Below, one piece after another: positions 27,095 to 58,557 of a stretch of 64,000 nucleotides of DNA; positions within the stretch are counted from its first letter, which is position 1; the number at the start of each line of letters is the position of its first letter. The notes below the pieces were generated by a model, which had not been told where the DNA came from, made no database searches, and worked only from the letters and a program-made list of their open reading frames with translations. Position numbers and translations under genes: made by a program. The DNA is from an uncultured Candidatus Saccharibacteria bacterium. Lineage in GTDB: Bacteria; Patescibacteriota; Saccharimonadia; Saccharimonadales; JAGQNJ01. The stretch lies in contig CAZRVM010000001.1 of NCBI GenBank assembly GCA_964603625.1, positions 1,949-65,948 on the forward strand. The letters are read 5' to 3'.

Positions 27095-27433
27095 TTACTG
27101 ATTGTTCCATTTATTTACAAATTGTTCTTTGTCTGAAATTCCACCAAGTATTGAAAGCATTAGATTTGTTGCATCTAGAACTATTACTAAATTTTCTTCA
27201 GGGCTACTTTTATCACCCCTAATCTCTTCATTAAAAACAATCGCTGTACAATTTTTATCTGTAAATTCATGTTCGTACTTTAGCCCGCGATCAGTAATTG
27301 TAGAAAGTAAGCTTTCCGAATGTTCAAAAGGTGGCTCAATCCGAATATAGCCATAATCAAATGTTTTTTCACAACCAACAACAGCGGTGTATTCACCATG
27401 TTCTAATTTGTGATCAATTTCAATAAGTGGCAT
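27095..27433 (-). CDS. hypothetical acidic protein (112 aa) inserted between rpsG and fusA
   Basis: Exactly fills the rpsG-fusA gap (8 nt and 15 nt spacers). No confident family assignment. Confidence 0.55.
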   Translation of the reverse strand: MPLIEIDHKLEHGEYTAVVGCEKTFDYGYIRIEPPFEHSESLLSTITDRGLKYEHEFTDKNCTAIVFNEEIRGDKSSPEENLVIVLDATNLMLSILGGISDKEQFVNKWNNQ

Positions 27434-27441
27434 TATTCTAA

Positions 27442-27918
27442 TTACCTGGCAAAGTGGGCAAAAGCTCGGTTGGCTTCAGCCATCTTATGAGTATCTTCAC
27501 GCTTTTTAACTGCAATACCGGTGTTATTGTAAGCATCTGTAAGTTCTTGGGCAATCCTATCAACCATACTCATACCTTTATGACTTCTAGCCGATTGGAC
27601 AAACCACATAATAGTTAAATGCTGTTGACGCTGACCTTTAACTTCAAAAGGAATCTGATAGTTAGCACCACCAACTCTCCGTGAGCGCGTTTCGAGTTGT
27701 GGCTGGATATTTTTCATTGCTTGTTCAAAGATATCTAAAGGATTTTTGACTTTTAGTTTATCGGCAGATTTTTGCATTCCATCATACACTAATCTTTCGG
27801 CAAGTTGTTTTTTGCCATTAAGCATTACTCTATTGATAACCTTTTGAACCTGCACACTATTATAGATTCTATCTGGTTGAATATCTCTAATTAAAGACTT
27901 AGTTTTTTTTCTAGGCAT
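27442..27918 (-). CDS. rpsG: 30S ribosomal protein S7
   Basis: MPRKKTKSLIRDIQPDRIYNS... Confidence 0.96.
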   Translation of the reverse strand: MPRKKTKSLIRDIQPDRIYNSVQVQKVINRVMLNGKKQLAERLVYDGMQKSADKLKVKNPLDIFEQAMKNIQPQLETRSRRVGGANYQIPFEVKGQRQQHLTIMWFVQSARSHKGMSMVDRIAQELTDAYNNTGIAVKKREDTHKMAEANRAFAHFAR

Positions 27919-28162
27919 TTTTGCCTCCTACTTTCTTTATATAAGAAAAATAATCATTATATTCATTGTCTTCCTTAGCAATAGCTTGAACCGCTAAAGA
28001 TGCAAGCCCACATTGCAAACTAGGAATTGCTTCACATATATTATGACATTCAGACTTAAACGATCTTCCTGTAATTTCCACATATTGTTGATTATAATCA
28101 CACTCACCACAATCAGGTAAAGTTACATTATAATCTTCGGTTATTGGATAAAATTCAACCAT
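27911..28162 (-). CDS. hypothetical Cys-rich small protein (83 aa) inserted between rpsL and rpsG
   Basis: Its start overlaps the rpsL stop (TAATG) and its stop overlaps the rpsG start by 8 nt. Cysteines occur as CGEC...ECHNIC...C (C18, C21, C39, C43, C51). Confidence 0.55.
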   Translation of the reverse strand: MVEFYPITEDYNVTLPDCGECDYNQQYVEITGRSFKSECHNICEAIPSLQCGLASLAVQAIAKEDNEYNDYFSYIKKVGGKNA

Positions 28163-35400: not shown

Positions 35401-36038
35401 TGATCAACATGAGATAGTTCTTGTTTGATTTGGCTTTCACTTAATCCAAGTGCTTTTAGAAGGGTAGTTACGGGAATTTTGCGCTTGCGATCAATCTTTA
35501 CATAAATTGCTCCACCAGCGCTTGTCTCAAACTCCAACCATGCTCCGCGACCTGGAATTACTTTAGCTCCATATAGTCTACTGCTTGTATGCTGTTCTGA
35601 AGTAAAGAAAACACCTGCCGAACGAATCAACTGGCTAACAACAACCCTTTCAGTACCATTAACAATAAATGTTCCACGACTAGTCATCCAAGGGTAATCA
35701 CCCAAGTAGATCTCTTGTTCTTTTACTTCACCTGTAATTTTATTTGTCAAAACTACTGTAGCTTTTAATGGTGCTTCAAACGAAATATTGTCATCCTTAG
35801 CTTCAGCTTCGGTAGTTTTAGGCTCTTCAAATTTATAATCTTTAAAACTAAGTGATAATTTTGTGCCTGTATAATCATCTATTGGACTAATTTCGGCTAG
35901 AAGTTCTCCCAACCCTTCATTTACAAACCAATAAAATGAATCATTTTGATGATCTACTAAGTTTGGTAAATCAAGAATCTCATCTGTTTGTGTAAAGTAC
36001 TTGCGCTTTGACGGCGCAATGCTAGTCGTTTTTGCCAT
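32487..36038 (-). CDS. rpoB: DNA-directed RNA polymerase subunit beta
   Basis: 1183 aa with conserved rpoB blocks; overlaps rpoC by 1 nt. Confidence 0.98.
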   Translation of the reverse strand: MAKTTSIAPSKRKYFTQTDEILDLPNLVDHQNDSFYWFVNEGLGELLAEISPIDDYTGTKLSLSFKDYKFEEPKTTEAEAKDDNISFEAPLKATVVLTNKITGEVKEQEIYLGDYPWMTSRGTFIVNGTERVVVSQLIRSAGVFFTSEQHTSSRLYGAKVIPGRGAWLEFETSAGGAIYVKIDRKRKIPVTTLLKALGLSESQIKQELSHVDQGKLNYTSATLEKDPAKGSNEALIEVYRRLRPGDLATVENARDLIKNMFFNFKRFDFSRVGRYKINSRLNLDVPNTTENRVMRIEDLLAIVAEIIRLNNTQEPADDIDSLANRRVKLVGELVQRQFRIGLLRMERNTKDRMSMSDIETVTPGQLINARPIVAAVREFFASSQLSQFMDQANPLSELAHKRRLSSMGPGGLNRERAGFEVRDAHATHYGRICPVETPEGANIGLVLNLSLYARINEYGFIETPYVKVINSVTAKDAVGYTASLDLEDNDGKVIVKAGKKITASDAKKLSNVKNRATWPVKAVVTKDIVYLDASDEEKAVIAGSNEKIDENGHFVNSRVSARNRLVSGDVDADEVTHMDASKRQIIGSSAGLIPFIEKNYVYRSLMGSNQQRQAVPLVKPQSPIVGTGLEGVVASNTGQIFQAIEDGQVLKADADEVIIDYKKAGKVSYKPQHFARSNDGTSINQKVVVSSGEKVKSGDSLIEGMSIEGGELALGKDLIAAFMPWSGYNFEDAIIISRKLVEDDTLSSVHIVDYMTEVRETKLGPELVTRDIPNVSEESLRHLDEDGIVHIGADVHPGDILVGKITPKGEQELSSEERLLRAIFGEKAKDVRDTSQRMSNGKHGKVVGVKIFSKENGHELKAGVIKQIKVYVAQMRKIAVGDKLGGRYGNKGVIARVLPVEDMPFMADGTPIDIILNPLGVPSRMNVGQLFEAHLGMAARALGFKVASPSFNGVSIDKIQDLLAEAGLPRNGKQQLYDGRTGEPFSETTTVGSMYMIKLDHMIVDKIHARSTGPYTMVTQQPLGGKAQNGGQRFGEMEVWSLEAYGAANTLQEMLTIKSDDVYGRSKAYESIIKKTPIVGPKVPESFNVLVKELQGLGLKVDLMMSEKLIDAEEIVAVNINDEARTQASIDVPAPEYSEIDMSADSSVDEFDLIEVDDHLPAEVLAVKDTGQNITIDEESEDK

Positions 36039-36261
36039 AACGAACTTATTTTCTCCTTGCTATATCAACTTTAAAAGTACCTATTACATGCATTTAAATA
36101 AGTACTAAAAACTAAGTTGAGTTTAAATTGATGATAAAATACGCCGAAGATCCTAAGCACTTTTTAGTTTACTACTAGGGTAAAAATAGTAAACTTTAGC
36201 TTACCCTACTTCTTAACAATAAATAATAACATACAATCCGAACAAATTACAAATTTAAAAT

Positions 36262-36849
36262 TTAAAGGACTTTATCTACCAATCCATATTCACAAGCTTC
36301 TGTTGCTGATAACCATTTATCTCGCTCCATATCTTCTTGGATCTTTTTAATTTTTTGCCCAGTATTTTTTGCCATAATTTCATTAAGCAGTTGTTTTAAC
36401 CTTAGACCTTCTTTTAAGTCTATCTCCATATCGGTTACTTTGCCTCTTGTTCCAGCAGAAGGTTGGTGAATCATAACTGTTGCATGAGGTAAAATAAATC
36501 GCTTACCCTTTGTTCCAGAGCTGAGTAAAAAAGCTGCTGCACTAGCTTGCACTCCAATACCAACAGTTTGAATATCACATTTTACATATTGCATAGTGTC
36601 ATAAATTGCAAAAGCATCGTAGACACTACCGCCAGGGCTATTTATGTAAAATTTAATATCTTTTTTAGGATCTTCATTTTCTAAAAATAAAATTTGAGCA
36701 ACGACTAAATTTGCTGTATGTTCATTTACATCACTTCCCAAGAAAATAATTCTATCTTTAAGTAGCCTAGAGTAAATATCAAAAGCCCGCTCTACTCGAC
36801 CATCTGTCTCTATAACGGTTGGAACTAATATTGAATCATTCATTTTCAT
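36262..36849 (-). CDS. clpP: ATP-dependent Clp protease proteolytic subunit
   Basis: [25 protein letters not shown]...[20 protein letters not shown]...[13 protein letters not shown]... (Ser-His-Asp triad context). Confidence 0.95.
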
Positions 36850-36873
36850 AATAATTTCATTTTATATAAATAA

Positions 36874-36900
36874 TTAGCACTCGTCAAGTAAGAGTGCTAA
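36874..36900. promoter_or_regulatory. CIRCE element (HrcA operator), 25 nt upstream of the clpP start codon
   Basis: ttagcactc-gtcaagtaa-gagtgctaa is a perfect match to the CIRCE consensus TTAGCACTC-N9-GAGTGCTAA. Confidence 0.8.
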
Positions 36901-36912
36901 ATTAGGTAAAGA

Positions 36913-38199
36913 TTATTTTTTTGTTACTACACTTACTAATTTAGCGATAGTTTTTTGAGTAATTAGCCGGCTAGCAATTTCTTGGCGAGCCTCTGGTTTA
37001 TTTAACTCTTCCTGCATTTGCTGATCTTGATATTGATCTTTAAGTAACCGCATTTGTGTATCAAGTTCCTCTGCAGTAACTTGAACTTTTTCGATATTTG
37101 AAATCTCGGCTAAAATTAAGCCGGTTTTTACTCTTGTTTTTGCTTCAGGCAATAATTGGGTCTTAACATATTCATCTTCTGTTAACTTTAAAGTATCTAG
37201 CATTTCTTGCCATGTTTGGCCACGATAAGTTAAACTTTGGCGAACTTCTGTTTTAAGTCTTTCAACTTGTTCGTCTACTAAACTTTTGGGTAAATCAAGT
37301 TCACTTTTAGTTACGATTTGATTAATTAATTCACTCTCAAATTTTGTATTCTCTTGTTTTTGTTTTTCTAATAATAACTGTTTTTTAATATCGGCCTTTA
37401 AATCATCTAAGGTTTTGAACTGTCCAACTTTTTCTGCAAATTTATCATCGAGCTTTGGCTTAACTAACAAATTAACTTGTTTTACTTCTACTTTAAAAGT
37501 TACTTTTTCACCAGCTAATGCTTTTACCCCGTAATCTTTTGGAAAGGTTAATTTAAACTCTTTTTTAGCTTCTTTTTTGAGCCCAACTAAATTTTTTTCA
37601 AAACCAGGAATAAAATTATCACTTCCAAGTATTAATGGATAGTCTTTTCCATCAGCACCTTTTATGGCCTGTTTTTTAGAATCGACACCACTAAAATCTA
37701 TAACAACTTCATCGCCCAATTTTGAAGGACGATCTACACTCTCCCGCGTTGCGTACTTATCACTCAAACTAACTAAAACTTCATTGATATCGGTATTATT
37801 TACCTTTGCTACTACTTTAGTTTTCTTAATCGACTTATAATCAGATAGCTTGATTTTACCTAAAATATCTACATCTGCTTGAAATTCTAAAGTTGTAAAG
37901 GGCACAAATTTTGATAATGAAATATTTGGGCTACCTATGACTTTTATCGATTCCTTAGATACAGCTTGTGCGTAAAGTAAGTTTATAGCTTCATCTAAAA
38001 ACCTAGACTGTAAAGTGTTTTGATCAAGATTTTTTTCAATTAAATGTATTGGCGCTTTGCCCGCTCTAAAGCCAGCAACTTTTAAATCAGCACCCAACTC
38101 TTTGAGAACTTTATGTTTAATTTGATCAAGTTCGCTATCGTCTGCTTTAATTGTTAATAAGCAATGTGTTTTTGAACTATCTTGTCGTTGTACCTGCAT
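36913..38199 (-). CDS. tig: trigger factor
   Basis: 428 aa with a central FKBP-type PPIase region (GFEKNLVGLK...EFKLTFP); located upstream of clpP as in many bacteria. Confidence 0.85.
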   Translation of the reverse strand: MQVQRQDSSKTHCLLTIKADDSELDQIKHKVLKELGADLKVAGFRAGKAPIHLIEKNLDQNTLQSRFLDEAINLLYAQAVSKESIKVIGSPNISLSKFVPFTTLEFQADVDILGKIKLSDYKSIKKTKVVAKVNNTDINEVLVSLSDKYATRESVDRPSKLGDEVVIDFSGVDSKKQAIKGADGKDYPLILGSDNFIPGFEKNLVGLKKEAKKEFKLTFPKDYGVKALAGEKVTFKVEVKQVNLLVKPKLDDKFAEKVGQFKTLDDLKADIKKQLLLEKQKQENTKFESELINQIVTKSELDLPKSLVDEQVERLKTEVRQSLTYRGQTWQEMLDTLKLTEDEYVKTQLLPEAKTRVKTGLILAEISNIEKVQVTAEELDTQMRLLKDQYQDQQMQEELNKPEARQEIASRLITQKTIAKLVSVVTKK

Positions 38200-51936: not shown

Positions 51937-52896
51937 TTAAAAACTTTGCGGTCGACTATCTATTGATTGAGCCAAATCTTTTACTTCAACGCTCACTTTA
52001 TTGCGCTCTGTAACAATTTCATTATATTGATTTATCTGCGAATCTACTTGCTTAACCAATTCGTTATACTGATTAACTTTAAAATTAAAACTCGGAACAC
52101 CCTGATTGTACTGTGCAATTTGATTTTTCGAAAGAAGCATATCCAAACCCGATTTTTCAGACATTAAATCTTTATATTTATTTGCTAAGTCTGATTTACT
52201 ACTATCAATTGTGGCTTTCAATTCATCTAATTGCTTATCGTAATCTGCAACTTTTTGTTGACGAGAACTAAATTCTGCCTGATAACGATCTGAAAATGCC
52301 ACAATTGCACTTCTATTTTTAAAATACTTCTTATAATACTCCTCGAGTTTTGGGGGCAAGTTGGATGCCTCAGTAGCCAGTATTGAATGAAGTTCATTAG
52401 GTACTACGCTAGGGTCTTGCTTACGATATTCCTCAACATTTTCCTTAATGTGAACTTTAGCAACATTCTTGTAAGCTTGTTCTGTTAAAGCATCAATTTC
52501 AGTTCTTTGTTTTTCTGACAGCCTAAAATAAGCGGCATGAAGCATTTCATGAGCTGCGGTAACTTCTTTAATGCCATCTAGCCTCTGGTCTGTAACATTA
52601 TAAATAAAAATTCCAGCGTCTGGTGTGTAGCATCCTAAAACTATTGAACTTTCATGGCCACATTCACTATTAATAGTACCAGCAGGAGCAATATATGGAT
52701 GGTTTACATAAAATATTCTTCTTCCATATTCCGTCATTGTTGTTTGATTCGCTAAAGTAACAACTTCAGCTGGTGGCGAGTAATTACGCAGATAATACCA
52801 ATCAACAACTTCTTGGCGTCCAAGCCACAGAAACACTATACCTGCTATAAGTGAAAGAGATAAAATTATCCCTAGCAGTTTTTTTATATATTTCAT
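51937..52896 (-). CDS. membrane-anchored hypothetical protein with an HExxH motif and a coiled-coil C-terminus
   Basis: N-terminal TM (LLGIILSLSLIAGIVFLWL). AAHEMLHAAY. C-terminal heptad-rich region. Confidence 0.5.
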   Translation of the reverse strand: MKYIKKLLGIILSLSLIAGIVFLWLGRQEVVDWYYLRNYSPPAEVVTLANQTTMTEYGRRIFYVNHPYIAPAGTINSECGHESSIVLGCYTPDAGIFIYNVTDQRLDGIKEVTAAHEMLHAAYFRLSEKQRTEIDALTEQAYKNVAKVHIKENVEEYRKQDPSVVPNELHSILATEASNLPPKLEEYYKKYFKNRSAIVAFSDRYQAEFSSRQQKVADYDKQLDELKATIDSSKSDLANKYKDLMSEKSGLDMLLSKNQIAQYNQGVPSFNFKVNQYNELVKQVDSQINQYNEIVTERNKVSVEVKDLAQSIDSRPQSF

Positions 52897-52932: not shown

Positions 52933-55410
52933 CTACTCTTCAATAATTGAATATGACAATTTTTTATTTTTAATACTAACTTCAACAATTGTACCTTTTT
53001 GGTATGTGCCTTCTATTAATTTACTTGCAATATGATCTTCTAGAGTGTCTTGAATTAAGCGCCTCATTGGCCTTACACCATTTAAGACATCATAACCTTT
53101 ATCAAGCAAATAATTTTTAGCTTGAGGAGTCAATTTAATACTTATGCCTTGTTTATTTAACCTTGTTTTAAGCTCCATTATCTGAAGATCAAGTATTTTA
53201 AGAATATTTAGTTTGGTTAAAGCCTTAAATACAATTGTTTTATCAATCCTATTGAAAAATTCAGGGCGCAACATTTTCTTTAATTGTTCTAGCACTTTAT
53301 CTTTATTAGATTTATGGAGATTCTCAAGATTTTCAAAATCTAGCTTATCATCTGCGCCAAATCCAAGTGTTACTTCTTTTTGTAGTTTTTCGGCACCAAT
53401 ATTACTTGTCATTATTACAATTGTATTTGTAAAATCAATTTTTCTTCCCTTTGCATCCGTAAGAATCCCATCTTCCAGAATTTGAAGCATCATATTGAAA
53501 ACATCTGGGTGAGCTTTTTCTATTTCATCAAATAAAACCACACTATATGGTTGTCTGCGAATTTTATCTGTTAACTGCCCCCCATCATCATAGCCGACAT
53601 AACCAGCAGGCGATCCAACAAGTCTAGATACATTATGATGTTCGCCAAATTCGCTCATATCTATTTTCACCAAGGCCTGGTCTGATCCAAAAAATTCTCT
53701 TGCTAAAACTCTAGCTAATTCTGTTTTACCAACACCAGTTGGGCCCAAGAAAATAAATGAACCAATTGGTCTTTTGCCGCTACTAATTCCAGAACGACTC
53801 CTTCTAACAGCTTTAGAAACTACCTTAACGGCCTGATCTTGACCAATAATAAATTTACTAAGATTTTTCTCTAAATTAAGTAAATATTTAGCTTCAGACC
53901 TAATGACACGCTTTACCGGCACACCTGTAGATCGAGAAACAATTTCGGCAACATCATCGCTGGTCATTACAATTTCTTTAGTTACCTTTACTTTTTTTTG
54001 AACTTTTTTTATCTCGGCATTAATTTGACTTGCTCGTTGCTTATGTTTGGCTGCAGACTCATAATCTTCATTATCTACGGCATCTTCTATTTTAGCATTA
54101 ATCAATTTAAGCTCTTTTCTAAGCATTCTTAATTCTGGCGGTGTTCGGCCTTTATCTATTTTTAAATGAGCCGATGTTTCATCAAGCAAATCTATTGCTT
54201 TATCTGGCATAAATCTATCGTTAATGTATCTATCTGCTAAATTTACGATATCTTCAATTACTTCATCAGATACAGTCACGCCATGAAAAGCTTCAAAATG
54301 CTTTCTTAAACCTTTCAAAATAGCAACAGTTTCAGTAATTGTTGTTTCAGGTACTTGAATTGGCTGAAAGCGTCTTTCAAGTGCGCTATCTTTTTCTATG
54401 TACTTTGTATACTCGGTAGTAGTGGTGGCACCAATTACTTGAATTTTTCCTCTTGATAGGGCTGGTTTCAAAATGTTTCCAGCATCTAAAGCCCCTTCAG
54501 CAGCGCCTGCCCCAACAATTAAATGAAGCTCATCAATAAAAATAATTGTATTTTTATCGTTTTCTAATTCTTGCATTACTTTTTTTAATCGTTCTTCAAA
54601 TTCTCCCCGATATTTTGTACCGGCAATCATCCCAGTTAAATCCAACATAACTACTCGTTTATCAACTAAACTATCTGGTACATCTTCACTAATTATTCGT
54701 TGTGCCAAGCCTTCGACGATTGCGGTTTTGCCAACTCCCGGCTCACCAATTAGTACCGGGTTATTCTTGGTACGCCTATTTAAAACTGTAATCACTCGAT
54801 TAATTTGTGATTCTCGTCCTACCACAGGGTCTAATTTGCCAGCTCTTGCTTGAGCAGTTAAATCAGTTCCAAAAAAATCTAAGGCCGATTTACGACGCTG
54901 TTTTGTTCTTATCCTTCCTTGCCCGTCTGGAGACTGCTCTTCATATTGTTGTCTATTTAAAAATTGTTCTATGCCAGTAATTAAACCCGTAACATTAACA
55001 TTCATATCTCTAAGCAAAACGGTTGCTCGGGCATTTTTTTGGCTCAAAATGCTGTAAAGTATATGCTCCGTACCACACATATCTTGGTTGTAGTCTTGAG
55101 CAACATCATAGGCCATTTTCAGTGTTAATTTTGCGGTCTCGCTCAACCCTTTAGCACCCATACTGGTTATTGTAGTCTTGGGCGATAACTTTAAAGCCAT
55201 ACTCGCTTTATTAAGGGTAATACCAGCGTCATTCAAGATTTTTGCTCCTATTGAACTATCTTGAGCTAAAACTCCTAGTAACAAGTGCTCTGTGCCTACA
55301 TACGAACTACCAGAAGCCCTCGAGATACCATCGGCATGTTGTAAACTTCTTAAAGCGTTCTCTGTTAGGTGGTTTAAAAATTCTTGAAATTCAGCAGAGT
55401 TTGGTGGCAT
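52933..55410 (-). CDS. clpC: ATP-dependent Clp protease ATP-binding subunit ClpC
   Basis: Two Clp_N repeats, two AAA+ modules ([18 protein letters not shown]; [15 protein letters not shown]), and a UVR-like motif ([19 protein letters not shown]). 825 aa. Confidence 0.92.
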
Positions 55411-55508
55411 AATCCCTCCTTTTAGTTTTATCGTAGTTTAATTGGATATTTCTTATCGATTTATTCATAATTTTTGCGAACTTAATCGCTAATTCCAGTA
55501 TATTAAAA

Positions 55509-55535
55509 TTAGCACTCATATGTCAAGAGTGCTAA
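55509..55535. promoter_or_regulatory. CIRCE element (HrcA operator) upstream of clpC
   Basis: ttagcactc-atatgtcaa-gagtgctaa is a perfect 9-N9-9 CIRCE consensus, 98 nt upstream of the clpC ATG and 22 nt downstream of the nusA stop. Confidence 0.8.
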
Positions 55536-55556: not shown

Positions 55557-56729
55557 CTATTCGCCGTGTTCTTCAATAGCTTCTAGTAAACTACTCTCAA
55601 GCTCACTTTTTTTCTTTATTGGTGTTGCAATTTTTGGTTCAGAACTTTGTTCTTTTGGCTCTTTTGTACTCTCATCAGATATGGGCTTAGATTTATCACC
55701 GATAATATCTATTTCATATTCGGTTAACTTACTAGCTAACCTAACATTCTGACCAGATTTACCAATAGCAATACTCAACTGATCTTCTGGTACATGTACA
55801 ATTGCCTTTTTAGATTTTTCATCTATTTCAACTTTAGAAACTGTTGTGGGGCTTAAAGCATTAATAACAAATTCTTTTGAGTTTGCGCTCCAAACTATGA
55901 TATCTATCTTCTCTTGCTCACCTATTTCACTCATCACTGCATTAACTCGAATGCCATGCCCTCCAACAAAGGTACCCACTGGGTCAACACCCTGAACATT
56001 GCTAACAACAGCAATTTTACTCCTAACTCCAGCTTCTCTAGCGATTGATTTTATGGCAACCGCACCATTTTCCATTTCTGGTACCTCAGCTCTAAATAGC
56101 CATTCAATAAATTGTGTACTTCCTCTAGATAATACTAACTGTGGCCCTCTTGGACCTTTTTCGACATCCTTTAAAAATACCTTCAGGCGTTGACCTGAAT
56201 AATAATGTTCTCCCTGAATTTGTTCGCTTGCAGGCAATATTCCTTGCACTTTGCCTAAATCAACCCTAACTACATTTCCGTCTACTCTAGCAACAATTCC
56301 GTTAAGGATTGTGTTAATTTTATCTTGATACTCATCTACTATAATTTCGCGCTCGGCTTCTCGTAATTTCTGAAGGATTACCTGCTTTGCAGTTTGTGCA
56401 GCCACTCGCCCAAAACTAGAAACATCCTGATGCAAAACTAAAACTTCGCCAATTTCAGCATTTTTCTTAATTACTTGAGCGTCCGACAGACTGATTTGTG
56501 TTTGAGGATCTTCAACAGGCTCACTAACAGTTTTCGAAATATAGGCATCAACATCACCAGTATGCAAATTTACACTAACACTTACTTCTTGCTCTCTATC
56601 GCCATAATCTTTTTTATAGGCAGCTGCTAAGGCCTGCTCAACTATATCTTGAACAGTTTCTTCGGGTAAATTTTTTTCTTCAGCTATAGCTCTTAATGCT
56701 ACTGTTAGTTGTTTAATATCTAAATCCAT
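55557..56729 (-). CDS. nusA: transcription termination/antitermination protein NusA
   Basis: N-terminal domain, S1, and two KH domains. Start placed at the ATG at 56729 (MDLDIKQLTVALRAIAEEKNL). Confidence 0.88.
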   Translation of the reverse strand: MDLDIKQLTVALRAIAEEKNLPEETVQDIVEQALAAAYKKDYGDREQEVSVSVNLHTGDVDAYISKTVSEPVEDPQTQISLSDAQVIKKNAEIGEVLVLHQDVSSFGRVAAQTAKQVILQKLREAEREIIVDEYQDKINTILNGIVARVDGNVVRVDLGKVQGILPASEQIQGEHYYSGQRLKVFLKDVEKGPRGPQLVLSRGSTQFIEWLFRAEVPEMENGAVAIKSIAREAGVRSKIAVVSNVQGVDPVGTFVGGHGIRVNAVMSEIGEQEKIDIIVWSANSKEFVINALSPTTVSKVEIDEKSKKAIVHVPEDQLSIAIGKSGQNVRLASKLTEYEIDIIGDKSKPISDESTKEPKEQSSEPKIATPIKKKSELESSLLEAIEEHGE

Positions 56730-56865
56730 TAATTTCCTTTCTTTTTTAGTAAAGTCATTACTAGTAAAAAAATCGACCATTCCGGCCGACCTTATCTCTA
56801 ACAATCAAATTATATCACAAATTCTTAACAATCAAAAAAATTTAAATTTGCTTTCTTTAAAAAAA

Positions 56866-58557
56866 CTAATCTTGGCAAGAATACGAACCATCACTTAGTT
56901 TAGCTCTCATAGCAAATAAGTGGGTTTGTTCATTAGCCACAAATTCACCGTTAGAACAAGAAACTTTAATTTTATATTGAACTTCGCCATCTTTAGGAGT
57001 CTCATCTGTAATTATAAGTTGCTGATAATAAAAATCATTGGAGCCAGATTGAACAGATTGCTCCAAAATTTCATTCACTGCTTCGGCATTTGGAGGTATA
57101 GCACCATTGTTATCATTGGAAAATTCATAGATAGAAGCCATATATGAAGAAATTGCGTTTTTAATCATAGTATCTTTGGCGGATGTAGGCTGACTATTAG
57201 CACTAGTAATACCATTACCAAATAACGATTCTATTTCCGATTTCAAATCTTTAATATTCATAGAATCAGCCGGAGCTTCAATTTTAAGGCTTTTATCATT
57301 AATTTTAATTGTGCTAACAAATTCCATAGTAATAGTCTCTTCACTTGTAGTAACTTTAAGCTTGGTTGGTAAACGAGTTTTGCTACCTACCCAAAGTTCA
57401 ACAACTGGTTTGATTTCATCGGCTTCCTTGTCTGCATTATTTTTGAGGTCCTCAAGCTGTTTATCATATTTTTCATCTTTAAGTTCACAATCAGATTTGA
57501 GAGTTTTATAAGATTCTAGCTCTAACATTGACTTCATGAATGTAATTGACTTTTGCTCATTAAAATCAAGTTTGTAATGATAACTAGACTCATTTTCAAT
57601 CTTTTCTTTTGGTAGTTTTTCTACAGCAAATGCAAACTGATTTTCTAAAAATAACTTCTTTATTTGTTTTTGATCTTTTTTAGATATTCGTAAATTTTTT
57701 AAAGCGTTGGAGCATTTATCTACTTCTTCTTCAGAATTAGCAAAACCAAGATCCACCAAACTCTGTTTATCAATTTTTATCCATTTATTATCGATTTTAT
57801 CTACTAGCGGTTTATAGACATCCACAACTGATGCGAGATCTGTGCTATTTTTAGATACTTGATCAACCGTCTGGCGAAGATCAGCGAATTTCACATAAAT
57901 CTCATCAGAACCAAGCATAATTACTGCGCCCTTAACTGTTACATCCACATTTTCATATTTTAAGTTTAAGCTAGCTTCTTGTTGAAAGTTGTTATCTGCA
58001 GTTTTAGAACTGAATTCAATTGTTGCATTGCCTTTCTTGGAGCCTTTAAATTCATATTTAACAGAACCTATTGCAGAAGAAGGTTTTCTATCTAGTAAGT
58101 CTTTCAAGGAGTTTCCTAGTGCGTCAGCCAATACTTTTTCGGGTTTGTTATTCATAATCGTGTAATAAGCATAGCCACCACCTCCACCAAGTATCAGCAA
58201 AAACACTAAAGCAATAATAATAATTTTTAAAAATCGTTTCTTTTTTTGTTTAGATTCAGAATCTACAATACTAGAAGCTGCCTGGCCTGGTGGGCTAAAC
58301 TGAAACGGCTGTTTAGTTGTGTTAGCCGGAGTGCTCTGGCTCTCAACAATAACATTTGGCTGATTAGAAACACTAACATTATCTTCAGGTCTTAACATTT
58401 GAGGATTACTTGCGGTTGGGGTATTTGATAATTGGCTAGGCGCAGGCTCAACTGGTTGAGCTTGAGATTCTAATGGGATAGGATTGTTTATACTTGAATT
58501 AGCTAACTCGTTGTTTACATCTTGCTTTTTTTCTGGATTGAATTGATTGTTTTCCAT
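56866..58557 (-). CDS. hypothetical membrane-anchored protein (563 aa) with a low-complexity N-terminus and a large extracytoplasmic domain
   Basis: Pro/Ser/Gln/Asn-rich N-terminal 110 aa. Single TM (IIIIALVFLLILGGGGGYAYYTI). C-terminal Cys pair (CSNG...SYSC). Confidence 0.5.
   Translation of the reverse strand: MENNQFNPEKKQDVNNELANSSINNPIPLESQAQPVEPAPSQLSNTPTASNPQMLRPEDNVSVSNQPNVIVESQSTPANTTKQPFQFSPPGQAASSIVDSESKQKKKRFLKIIIIALVFLLILGGGGGYAYYTIMNNKPEKVLADALGNSLKDLLDRKPSSAIGSVKYEFKGSKKGNATIEFSSKTADNNFQQEASLNLKYENVDVTVKGAVIMLGSDEIYVKFADLRQTVDQVSKNSTDLASVVDVYKPLVDKIDNKWIKIDKQSLVDLGFANSEEEVDKCSNALKNLRISKKDQKQIKKLFLENQFAFAVEKLPKEKIENESSYHYKLDFNEQKSITFMKSMLELESYKTLKSDCELKDEKYDKQLEDLKNNADKEADEIKPVVELWVGSKTRLPTKLKVTTSEETITMEFVSTIKINDKSLKIEAPADSMNIKDLKSEIESLFGNGITSANSQPTSAKDTMIKNAISSYMASIYEFSNDNNGAIPPNAEAVNEILEQSVQSGSNDFYYQQLIITDETPKDGEVQYKIKVSCSNGEFVANEQTHLFAMRAKLSDGSYSCQD

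Follow-up and report, generated by a model that had tools for sequence, protein, structure and literature searches.

The clpP gene of an uncultured Candidatus Saccharibacteria bacterium is preceded by a perfect CIRCE element, the inverted repeat that serves as the operator of the heat shock repressor HrcA. We analyzed this locus within a 64-kb stretch of one contig (64,000 nucleotides in total, hereafter the window), which has about 35% G+C and carries nearly all of its genes on one strand. A second CIRCE precedes clpC, which lies 18 kb away from clpP. The features at the two loci are as follows.

36262 to 36849, minus strand: clpP, proteolytic subunit of the ATP-dependent Clp protease, 195 aa (NF001368, PF00574)
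36859 to 36864, minus strand: TAAAAT, -10 hexamer of the predicted clpP promoter (promoter scan)
36874 to 36900, no strand assigned: CIRCE-1, putative HrcA operator of clpP, TTAGCACTC-N9-GAGTGCTAA, 0 mismatches
36882 to 36887, minus strand: TTGACG, -35 hexamer of the predicted clpP promoter, at offset 4 of the CIRCE-1 spacer and running into the proximal arm
36913 to 38199, minus strand: tig, trigger factor, the gene upstream of clpP (TIGR00115, 336 bits)
52933 to 55410, minus strand: clpC-type AAA+ unfoldase, 825 aa (domain profiles; homologs named ClpC by JGI)
55497 to 55502, minus strand: TATACT, -10 hexamer of the predicted clpC promoter (promoter scan)
55509 to 55535, no strand assigned: CIRCE-2, putative HrcA operator of clpC, a perfect copy in the nusA-clpC gap that is kept in relatives
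55521 to 55526, minus strand: TTGACA, -35 hexamer of the predicted clpC promoter, inside the CIRCE-2 spacer at offset 0
55557 to 56804, minus strand: nusA, the gene upstream of clpC (profile match; same order in related loci)

The clpP reading frame scores 295 bits against the NCBIfam ClpP model NF001368 (cutoff, 249), and metagenome contigs from several samples carry an identical ClpP gene. Although tig-clpP-clpX is a common gene order elsewhere, clpP is followed directly by rpoB and rpoC in the window, with no adjoining clpX (36038 to 36262). The tig-clpP-rpoB order is kept in most of the 80 related loci described below, with tig upstream in 76 and rpoB downstream in 77. The 825-aa protein encoded at the second locus contains a pair of Clp_N repeats and a pair of AAA modules, along with a short middle domain of the UVR-like kind, and has an LGF tripeptide where the ClpP-docking loop sits. 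These features identify it as a ClpC, the type that partners ClpP, and not as ClpB. Its start codon is preceded by GGAGGG.

Other reading frames in the window are harder to name. A 319-aa open reading frame (ORF) between clpC and radA (51937 to 52896, minus strand) has no Pfam match and draws only weak, sub-threshold SMC-like matches from NCBIfam; its position is kept in related loci (L095, L178, L187, L206, and L224 to L227). Between pepN and nusA lies a 563-aa ORF (56866 to 58557, minus strand) with no Pfam or NCBIfam match. Because pepN directly adjoins nusA in four relatives (L224 to L227), this ORF seems to have been inserted recently in this species. The str operon holds two small ORFs without a Pfam match, one of 83 aa between rpsL and rpsG (27911 to 28162, minus strand) and one of 112 aa between rpsG and fusA (27095 to 27433, minus strand), and both were called as genes on matching metagenome contigs too.

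CIRCE elements and CtsR boxes in the window

The sequence TTAGCACTCGTCAAGTAAGAGTGCTAA at positions 36874 to 36900 matches the CIRCE consensus with 0 mismatches and reads TTAGCACTC-TTACTTGAC-GAGTGCTAA on the coding (minus) strand. The tig stop codon lies 12 nt away on its upstream side, and the clpP ATG lies 24 nt away on the other. The first-pass annotation had reported a perfect CIRCE directly upstream of clpP at a distance of 25 nt from the ATG; the element and its upstream position hold, while the measured spacing is 1 nt shorter. The identical-stem copy that it had placed before clpC is likewise present as CIRCE-2, whose arms extend to 12 nt (AAATTAGCACTC and GAGTGCTAATTT). These two elements are the only matches in the 64-kb window even when up to three mismatches are allowed. 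In dinucleotide-preserving shuffles of the window, chance matches averaged 0.01, and none of 100 shuffles reached two.

Another perfect inverted repeat, of 10 nt, lies close by: GCTAAATTAG and CTAATTTAGC, at 36896 to 36905 and 36936 to 36945, are 30 nt apart and overlap the distal arm of CIRCE-1 and the 3' end of tig. This repeat may have arisen by chance.

Clp genes fall under CtsR in Bacillota, and we searched the window for its operator as well. The CtsR box RGTCADNNANRGTCADN has no match in the intergenic region of either clpP or clpC, and the search of the whole window returned a single match with one mismatch, located inside an ORF (57536 to 57551), where 1.75 would be expected by chance. 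Upstream of clpC, neither the window nor 12 related loci contain ctsR, mcsA, or mcsB, and nusA stands there instead. Both results agree with the first-pass annotation, which had seen no CtsR-type heptad repeats and had proposed checking for the absence of ctsR. CtsR control of clpP and clpC is rejected, since the box search was negative at both genes.

Conservation and promoter geometry

To assess conservation, we scanned one genome per GTDB species with the ClpP sequence of the window and obtained 80 clpP loci, nearly all of them titled as Candidatus Saccharibacteria or Saccharimonadales MAGs and together spanning 1,298,837 nt (about 16 kb each). Their ClpP proteins are 75 to 87% identical to that of the window, so the loci are not near-duplicates. 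A search that tolerated up to three mismatches found exactly 80 CIRCE matches, one per locus and each immediately upstream of clpP: 41 are perfect, 24 have one mismatch, 13 have two, and 2 have three. Of the 18 arm positions, 13 are invariant in all 80 loci, among them the inner CTC and GAG triplets. The variable arm positions are the outermost and the third from each outer end, where 64 to 77 of the 80 sequences agree; at positions further upstream, agreement drops to only 25 to 37.

The operator at clpC is conserved as well. The motif-based metagenome scan described below recovered the order nusA-CIRCE-clpC-ORF-radA in at least eight loci. Because a motif scan yields a biased sample, four more relatives (L224 to L227) were fetched by protein similarity alone (75 to 85% identity), blind to the motif. 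All four carry a CIRCE between nusA and clpC with zero or one mismatch, and in each the spacer holds TTGAC at offset 0, followed by a -10 box. The probable link between HrcA and the Clp genes is thus ancient and shared across the lineage, not a peculiarity of this genome.

The CIRCE elements coincide with predicted promoters. The promoter scan predicts TTGACG-17-TAAAAT for clpP (10 of 12 consensus matches) and TTGACA-18-TATACT for clpC (11 of 12), with the -35 hexamer beginning inside the CIRCE spacer in both cases. In 77 of the 80 clpP relatives, TTGAC lies within the 9-nt spacer and adopts only two registers, either offset 0, right after the left arm, or offset 4, right before the right arm; in the remaining three, the first register is occupied by TTGCA or TTGAT. 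A -10 hexamer of the type TAnnnT follows 16 to 18 nt later and moves along with the register. In a random 9-mer, TTGAC would be found at any one offset in about 0.1% of cases, which indicates that the overlap is by design, and its combination with a -10 box 16 to 18 nt further on means that the operator encloses the predicted -35 element. This pattern defines a sigma-70-type promoter for Saccharibacteria (-35 TTGAC, -10 TAnnnT) as a well-marked, consensus-based prediction.

The promoter geometry also bears on the start of the clpP message. In the window, the -10 hexamer ends 9 nt before the clpP ATG with no Shine-Dalgarno sequence in between (36847 to 36864, minus strand), and the clpP mRNA is therefore predicted to be leaderless or nearly so. 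About three-quarters of the 80 species (L011 to L090) likewise have an in-frame clpP ATG 6 to 10 nt past the predicted -10 without a Shine-Dalgarno sequence, and in about one-quarter the leader is longer and contains a Shine-Dalgarno motif of the GGAGG type. The CIRCE of Bacillus subtilis is located downstream of the -10 element and the transcription start. A leaderless message leaves no room for an operator downstream of the start site, which may explain its upstream placement at clpP. The same operator design recurs at clpC, however, even though the leader predicted there is about 80 nt long and includes a strong ribosome-binding site.

We considered whether the inverted repeat acts mainly as an RNA element, either a terminator or attenuator hairpin of tig or a determinant of mRNA stability. 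Its position would suit such a role, since CIRCE-1 lies 12 nt past the tig stop codon and tig is upstream of clpP in 76 of 80 relatives, and so would its fold: a 9-bp stem with a 9-nt loop is followed by the U-rich UUAUUUAUAU, and the 73-nt region folds at -13.1 kcal/mol (z-score, -3.7). However, a selected hairpin should show compensatory changes, and the core arm bases are instead invariant in 80 species. The arms also match the CIRCE consensus of unrelated phyla, and the same sequence recurs next to other upstream genes, being present downstream of nusA and in front of groES, dnaK, and hrcA. The terminator scan, which accepts loops of 3 to 8 nt, called nothing at the site with its loop of 9 nt, and Rfam at the gathering threshold yielded only four tRNAs in the window; a known RNA family is rejected because none matches the site. 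An invariant, specific sequence without covariation fits a protein-binding site under purifying selection, and we regard a primary function in RNA as very unlikely. CIRCE-1 could still form an extra hairpin on tig read-through transcripts, a role that would be secondary at most given that its conservation takes the form of invariance.

The HrcA repressor and the wider set of CIRCE loci

We scanned metagenome contigs with the pattern TTAGCACTC-N(0-4)-TTGAC-N(0-4)-GAGTGCTAA, which requires perfect arms and a TTGAC in the spacer and is by construction uninformative about the frequency of an embedded -35 among all CIRCE sites. At least 120 loci matched, and the spacer is exactly 9 nt in all of those listed, although 5 to 13 nt was allowed. 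Among the matches listed, the first downstream gene encodes Hsp20 (29 loci), HrcA (19), ClpB or ClpC (16), DnaK (8), GroES (8), ClpP (4), RpoH (3), GroEL (2), or DnaJ (1), with a few that are unclassifiable; almost all of these genes thus belong to proteostasis, as chaperones or proteases.

Taxa were taken from cluster names for a subset of the metagenome loci, and a comparison with the clpP-neighborhood loci resolved no taxon for the hrcA, groES, and dnaK loci. Exact protein look-ups did place two of them: the GroEL of a groES-groEL locus (L196) and the DnaK of a dnaK locus (L172), both of which carry CIRCE, are named Candidatus Saccharibacteria bacterium by NCBI. The hrcA-grpE-dnaK loci L211 to L217 carry CIRCE too. 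The copies that the first-pass annotation had expected at groES and dnaK are thus found in other contigs of the Saccharibacteria, and the evidence for groESL and dnaK applies at the level of the lineage. Within the 64-kb window, Pfam and NCBIfam scans of the non-ribosomal ORFs detected no hrcA, groEL, or dnaK, and an extension of about 4 to 10 kb at each end contained no further CIRCE target genes.

Some promoters carry two elements. Tandem CIRCEs occur at hrcA operons of Saccharibacteria (L211, 9924 to 9997; L214, 9923 to 9999) and at dnaK loci including one of Saccharibacteria (L172), with L093 and L154 as further examples. The first CIRCE of the pair encloses the -35 element with its TTGAC, and a more degenerate copy follows the -10, close to the start codon of the gene.

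The scan also reached beyond Saccharibacteria. A CIRCE with a spacer TTGAC precedes hsp20 genes of Agathobacter rectalis (hsp20 loci L092, L117, L126, and L168) and clpB of Roseburia faecis (clpB loci L139, L140, and L176). These hsp20 and clpB loci belong to Lachnospiraceae, and the embedded -35 design is therefore not unique to Saccharibacteria. On high-G+C contigs, the same arrangement precedes rpoH (L128, L130, and L209) and a small FmdB-type zinc-ribbon gene (L104, L108, and L185).

HrcA itself is abundant in the lineage. A search with one of the short HrcA-like proteins gave at least 8,000 candidates, of which the best 120 are mostly 232 to 257 aa long and match PF01628, often together with PF03444; members P0014, P0049, and P0078 match PF01628/PF03444 and are named Candidatus Saccharibacteria bacterium by NCBI. 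The genes head hrcA-grpE-dnaK-...-dnaJ operons with the same CIRCE upstream, and HrcA-like proteins on low-G+C contigs (L186, L182, L098, L103, and others) range from 217 to 245 aa, the form typical of the lineage being about 235 aa, compared with 340 aa for canonical HrcA. A short HrcA occurs in other CPR groups as well, for example, as a Candidatus Falkowbacteria protein annotated as hypothetical.

Aligned with one canonical HrcA of 353 aa, the short protein shows a single clean internal gap of about 100 residues. Residues 2 to 76 of P0049 align to residues 16 to 92 of the Thermotoga maritima structure 1STZ, which form the winged-helix region (E = 5e-19), and invariant residues in this region comprise P22, V23, G24, S25, S35, S36, A37, T38, R40, P55, T57, S58, G60, R61, P63, and T64. 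An AlphaFold model of the short HrcA (mean pLDDT, 78) matches 1STZ_A with a TM-score of 0.77 normalized to the 235-residue query and 0.58 normalized to the target, over 331 alignment columns. According to this model, the lineage HrcA keeps the DNA-binding and C-terminal domains and is devoid of the inserted domain of about 100 residues. Canonical HrcA, as in T. maritima 1STZ, consists of a winged helix, a GAF-like domain, and a dimerizing domain inserted within the C-terminal domain; the N-terminal winged helix is shared with the short protein, and the inserted domain is not. We take the missing block to be the domain that mediates dimerization in the 1STZ structure; the paper describing that structure reportedly calls it the inserted dimerizing domain. 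The short HrcA raises a testable question as to which parts of the repressor serve dimerization and stress sensing.

Pfam and NCBIfam scans and exact-protein look-ups detected no hrcA in the window or in about 4 to 10 kb past each end, and genomes of Saccharibacteria are strongly reduced. Both observations would fit relic operators, in which hrcA has been lost, the sites persist by chance or because the loss is recent, and clpP is constitutive. Against this stand two copies that each match all 18 specified bases, which would not be expected to survive for long without selection in a genome of 35% G+C, as well as the conservation of the site in 80 of 80 relatives and the abundance of HrcA in the lineage. 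We consider such a relic highly improbable, and the combination of HrcA in the lineage with two perfect operators here leads us to infer that this genome encodes hrcA. Least probable of all, to the point of being hardly tenable, is a reading that has nothing to do with heat shock, with the element as a generic repeat between genes or as the target of some other DNA-binding protein, such as a regulator particular to the lineage that took over the CIRCE sequence. Nothing supports this reading directly, and only the atypical shortness of the HrcA-like protein leaves some doubt about what binds the site; the repeat is rejected on copy number (two in 64 kb and one per relative locus in 1.3 Mb, always at clpP, which rules out a generic element), the downstream genes among the metagenome matches listed are almost exclusively chaperones and proteases, and the short protein keeps the winged-helix region of HrcA with its conserved motifs (E = 5e-19 against 1STZ).

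Proposed regulation and comparison with known systems

On sequence grounds, the element upstream of clpP is very probably a working CIRCE through which HrcA acts on the clpP promoter itself. From this arrangement we infer that HrcA binds the site and represses the gene, that heat induces it, and where its transcription starts. An HrcA dimer bound to both arms would mask the -35 element and deny RNA polymerase access, which makes polymerase exclusion the most likely mechanism. As unfolded proteins accumulate, HrcA would lose activity and clpP would be transcribed; in other bacteria, the activity of HrcA depends on GroEL. The same operator-on-promoter design would control clpC and, in Saccharibacteria generally, groES-groEL, dnaK, and hrcA-grpE-dnaK. 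The first-pass annotation had suggested that the HrcA regulon was extended to the Clp system, and this proposal is sustained by the sites at all 80 clpP loci, their overlap with the promoter, the sites at all four clpC relatives, and the presence of HrcA in the lineage.

Judged from its predicted operators, a single repressor seems to govern both the chaperones and the ClpCP protease of these reduced genomes, which suggests that it replaces the pair of HrcA and CtsR found in Bacillota. A broader reading is that a single minimal HrcA runs the whole proteostasis network (GroESL, DnaK/GrpE/DnaJ, and ClpCP) in Saccharibacteria and probably in many CPR/Patescibacteria, with an HrcA that has no inserted domain, a -35 element in the CIRCE spacer, and a clpP mRNA that is often leaderless. 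We see the chances of this broader reading as evenly balanced. If it holds, a repressor without the inserted domain must dimerize or sense stress differently, and it would offer a natural minimal HrcA for studying repressor function. It would also be the first time that a regulon and a promoter architecture are defined in this uncultivated phylum; to our knowledge, gene regulation in Saccharibacteria and other CPR bacteria of ultra-small size is almost entirely unexplored.

CIRCE provides a conserved and easily recognized operator for Saccharibacteria, and the predicted stress regulon joins chaperones with the ClpCP protease across the lineage. Genetic tools for Saccharibacteria are now under development, and the finding offers a candidate stress-inducible promoter for them. 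Our literature search turned up no publication that deals with HrcA in Saccharibacteria or Patescibacteria.

HrcA and CIRCE form the most widespread bacterial heat shock repressor system, whose regulon varies between lineages (PMC8762339, PMC545781). The classical class I regulon is that of the dnaK and groE operons of B. subtilis, and summaries of the CIRCE consensus and the mechanism are available (PMC3842655, PMC8762339). The 9-bp inverted repeat and 9-nt spacer of that class I regulon are identical here, and, as in B. subtilis, the CIRCE of Saccharibacteria precedes hrcA-grpE-dnaK and groES-groEL. With hrcA as the first gene of the dnaK operon, the repressor of Saccharibacteria is therefore expected to be autoregulated. 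Unlike the B. subtilis class I regulon, the set in Saccharibacteria also takes in clpP and clpC, its operator encloses the predicted -35 element, and its HrcA of about 235 aa has no inserted domain.

The CtsR class III regulon of Bacillota (ctsR-mcsA-mcsB-clpC, clpP, and clpE) shares the targets clpP and clpC with the system described here, along with radA downstream of clpC. The logic, repression relieved by stress, would also be the same, although for Saccharibacteria we deduce it from the operators. The two systems differ in that CtsR uses a heptad direct repeat and the operator here is CIRCE, and in that Bacillota have ctsR-mcsA-mcsB upstream of clpC, where Saccharibacteria have nusA.

Mollicutes resemble Saccharibacteria in having reduced genomes in which HrcA is among very few regulators and controls AAA+ chaperone or protease genes together with chaperones. 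We know of no ClpP in most Mollicutes. [quoted passage not shown] Tandem CIRCEs are thus common to some Mollicutes promoters and to the hrcA and dnaK promoters of Saccharibacteria. The targets differ, being clpB, lon, and clpL in Mollicutes and L. gasseri but clpP and clpC in Saccharibacteria, and a -35 element embedded in the spacer, present in Saccharibacteria, is not reported for Mollicutes or L. gasseri in the sources cited above.

A further precedent is clpP of Streptococcus salivarius, a member of a different phylum from Saccharibacteria (Patescibacteria/CPR). This gene is reportedly under dual control by CtsR and HrcA (Chastanet and Msadek 2003, J Bacteriol 185:683, cited in PMC3842655). 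By that account, a CIRCE lies upstream of clpP as it does here, a direct precedent for HrcA control of clpP, and CtsR co-regulates the gene, whereas no CtsR box or operon was seen at the clp loci studied here and HrcA is apparently the sole regulator. HrcA control of clp genes is therefore not a new circuit in bacteria. The variant features of the circuit in Saccharibacteria are the -35 element in the CIRCE spacer, the frequently predicted leaderless clpP message, and an HrcA without the inserted domain.
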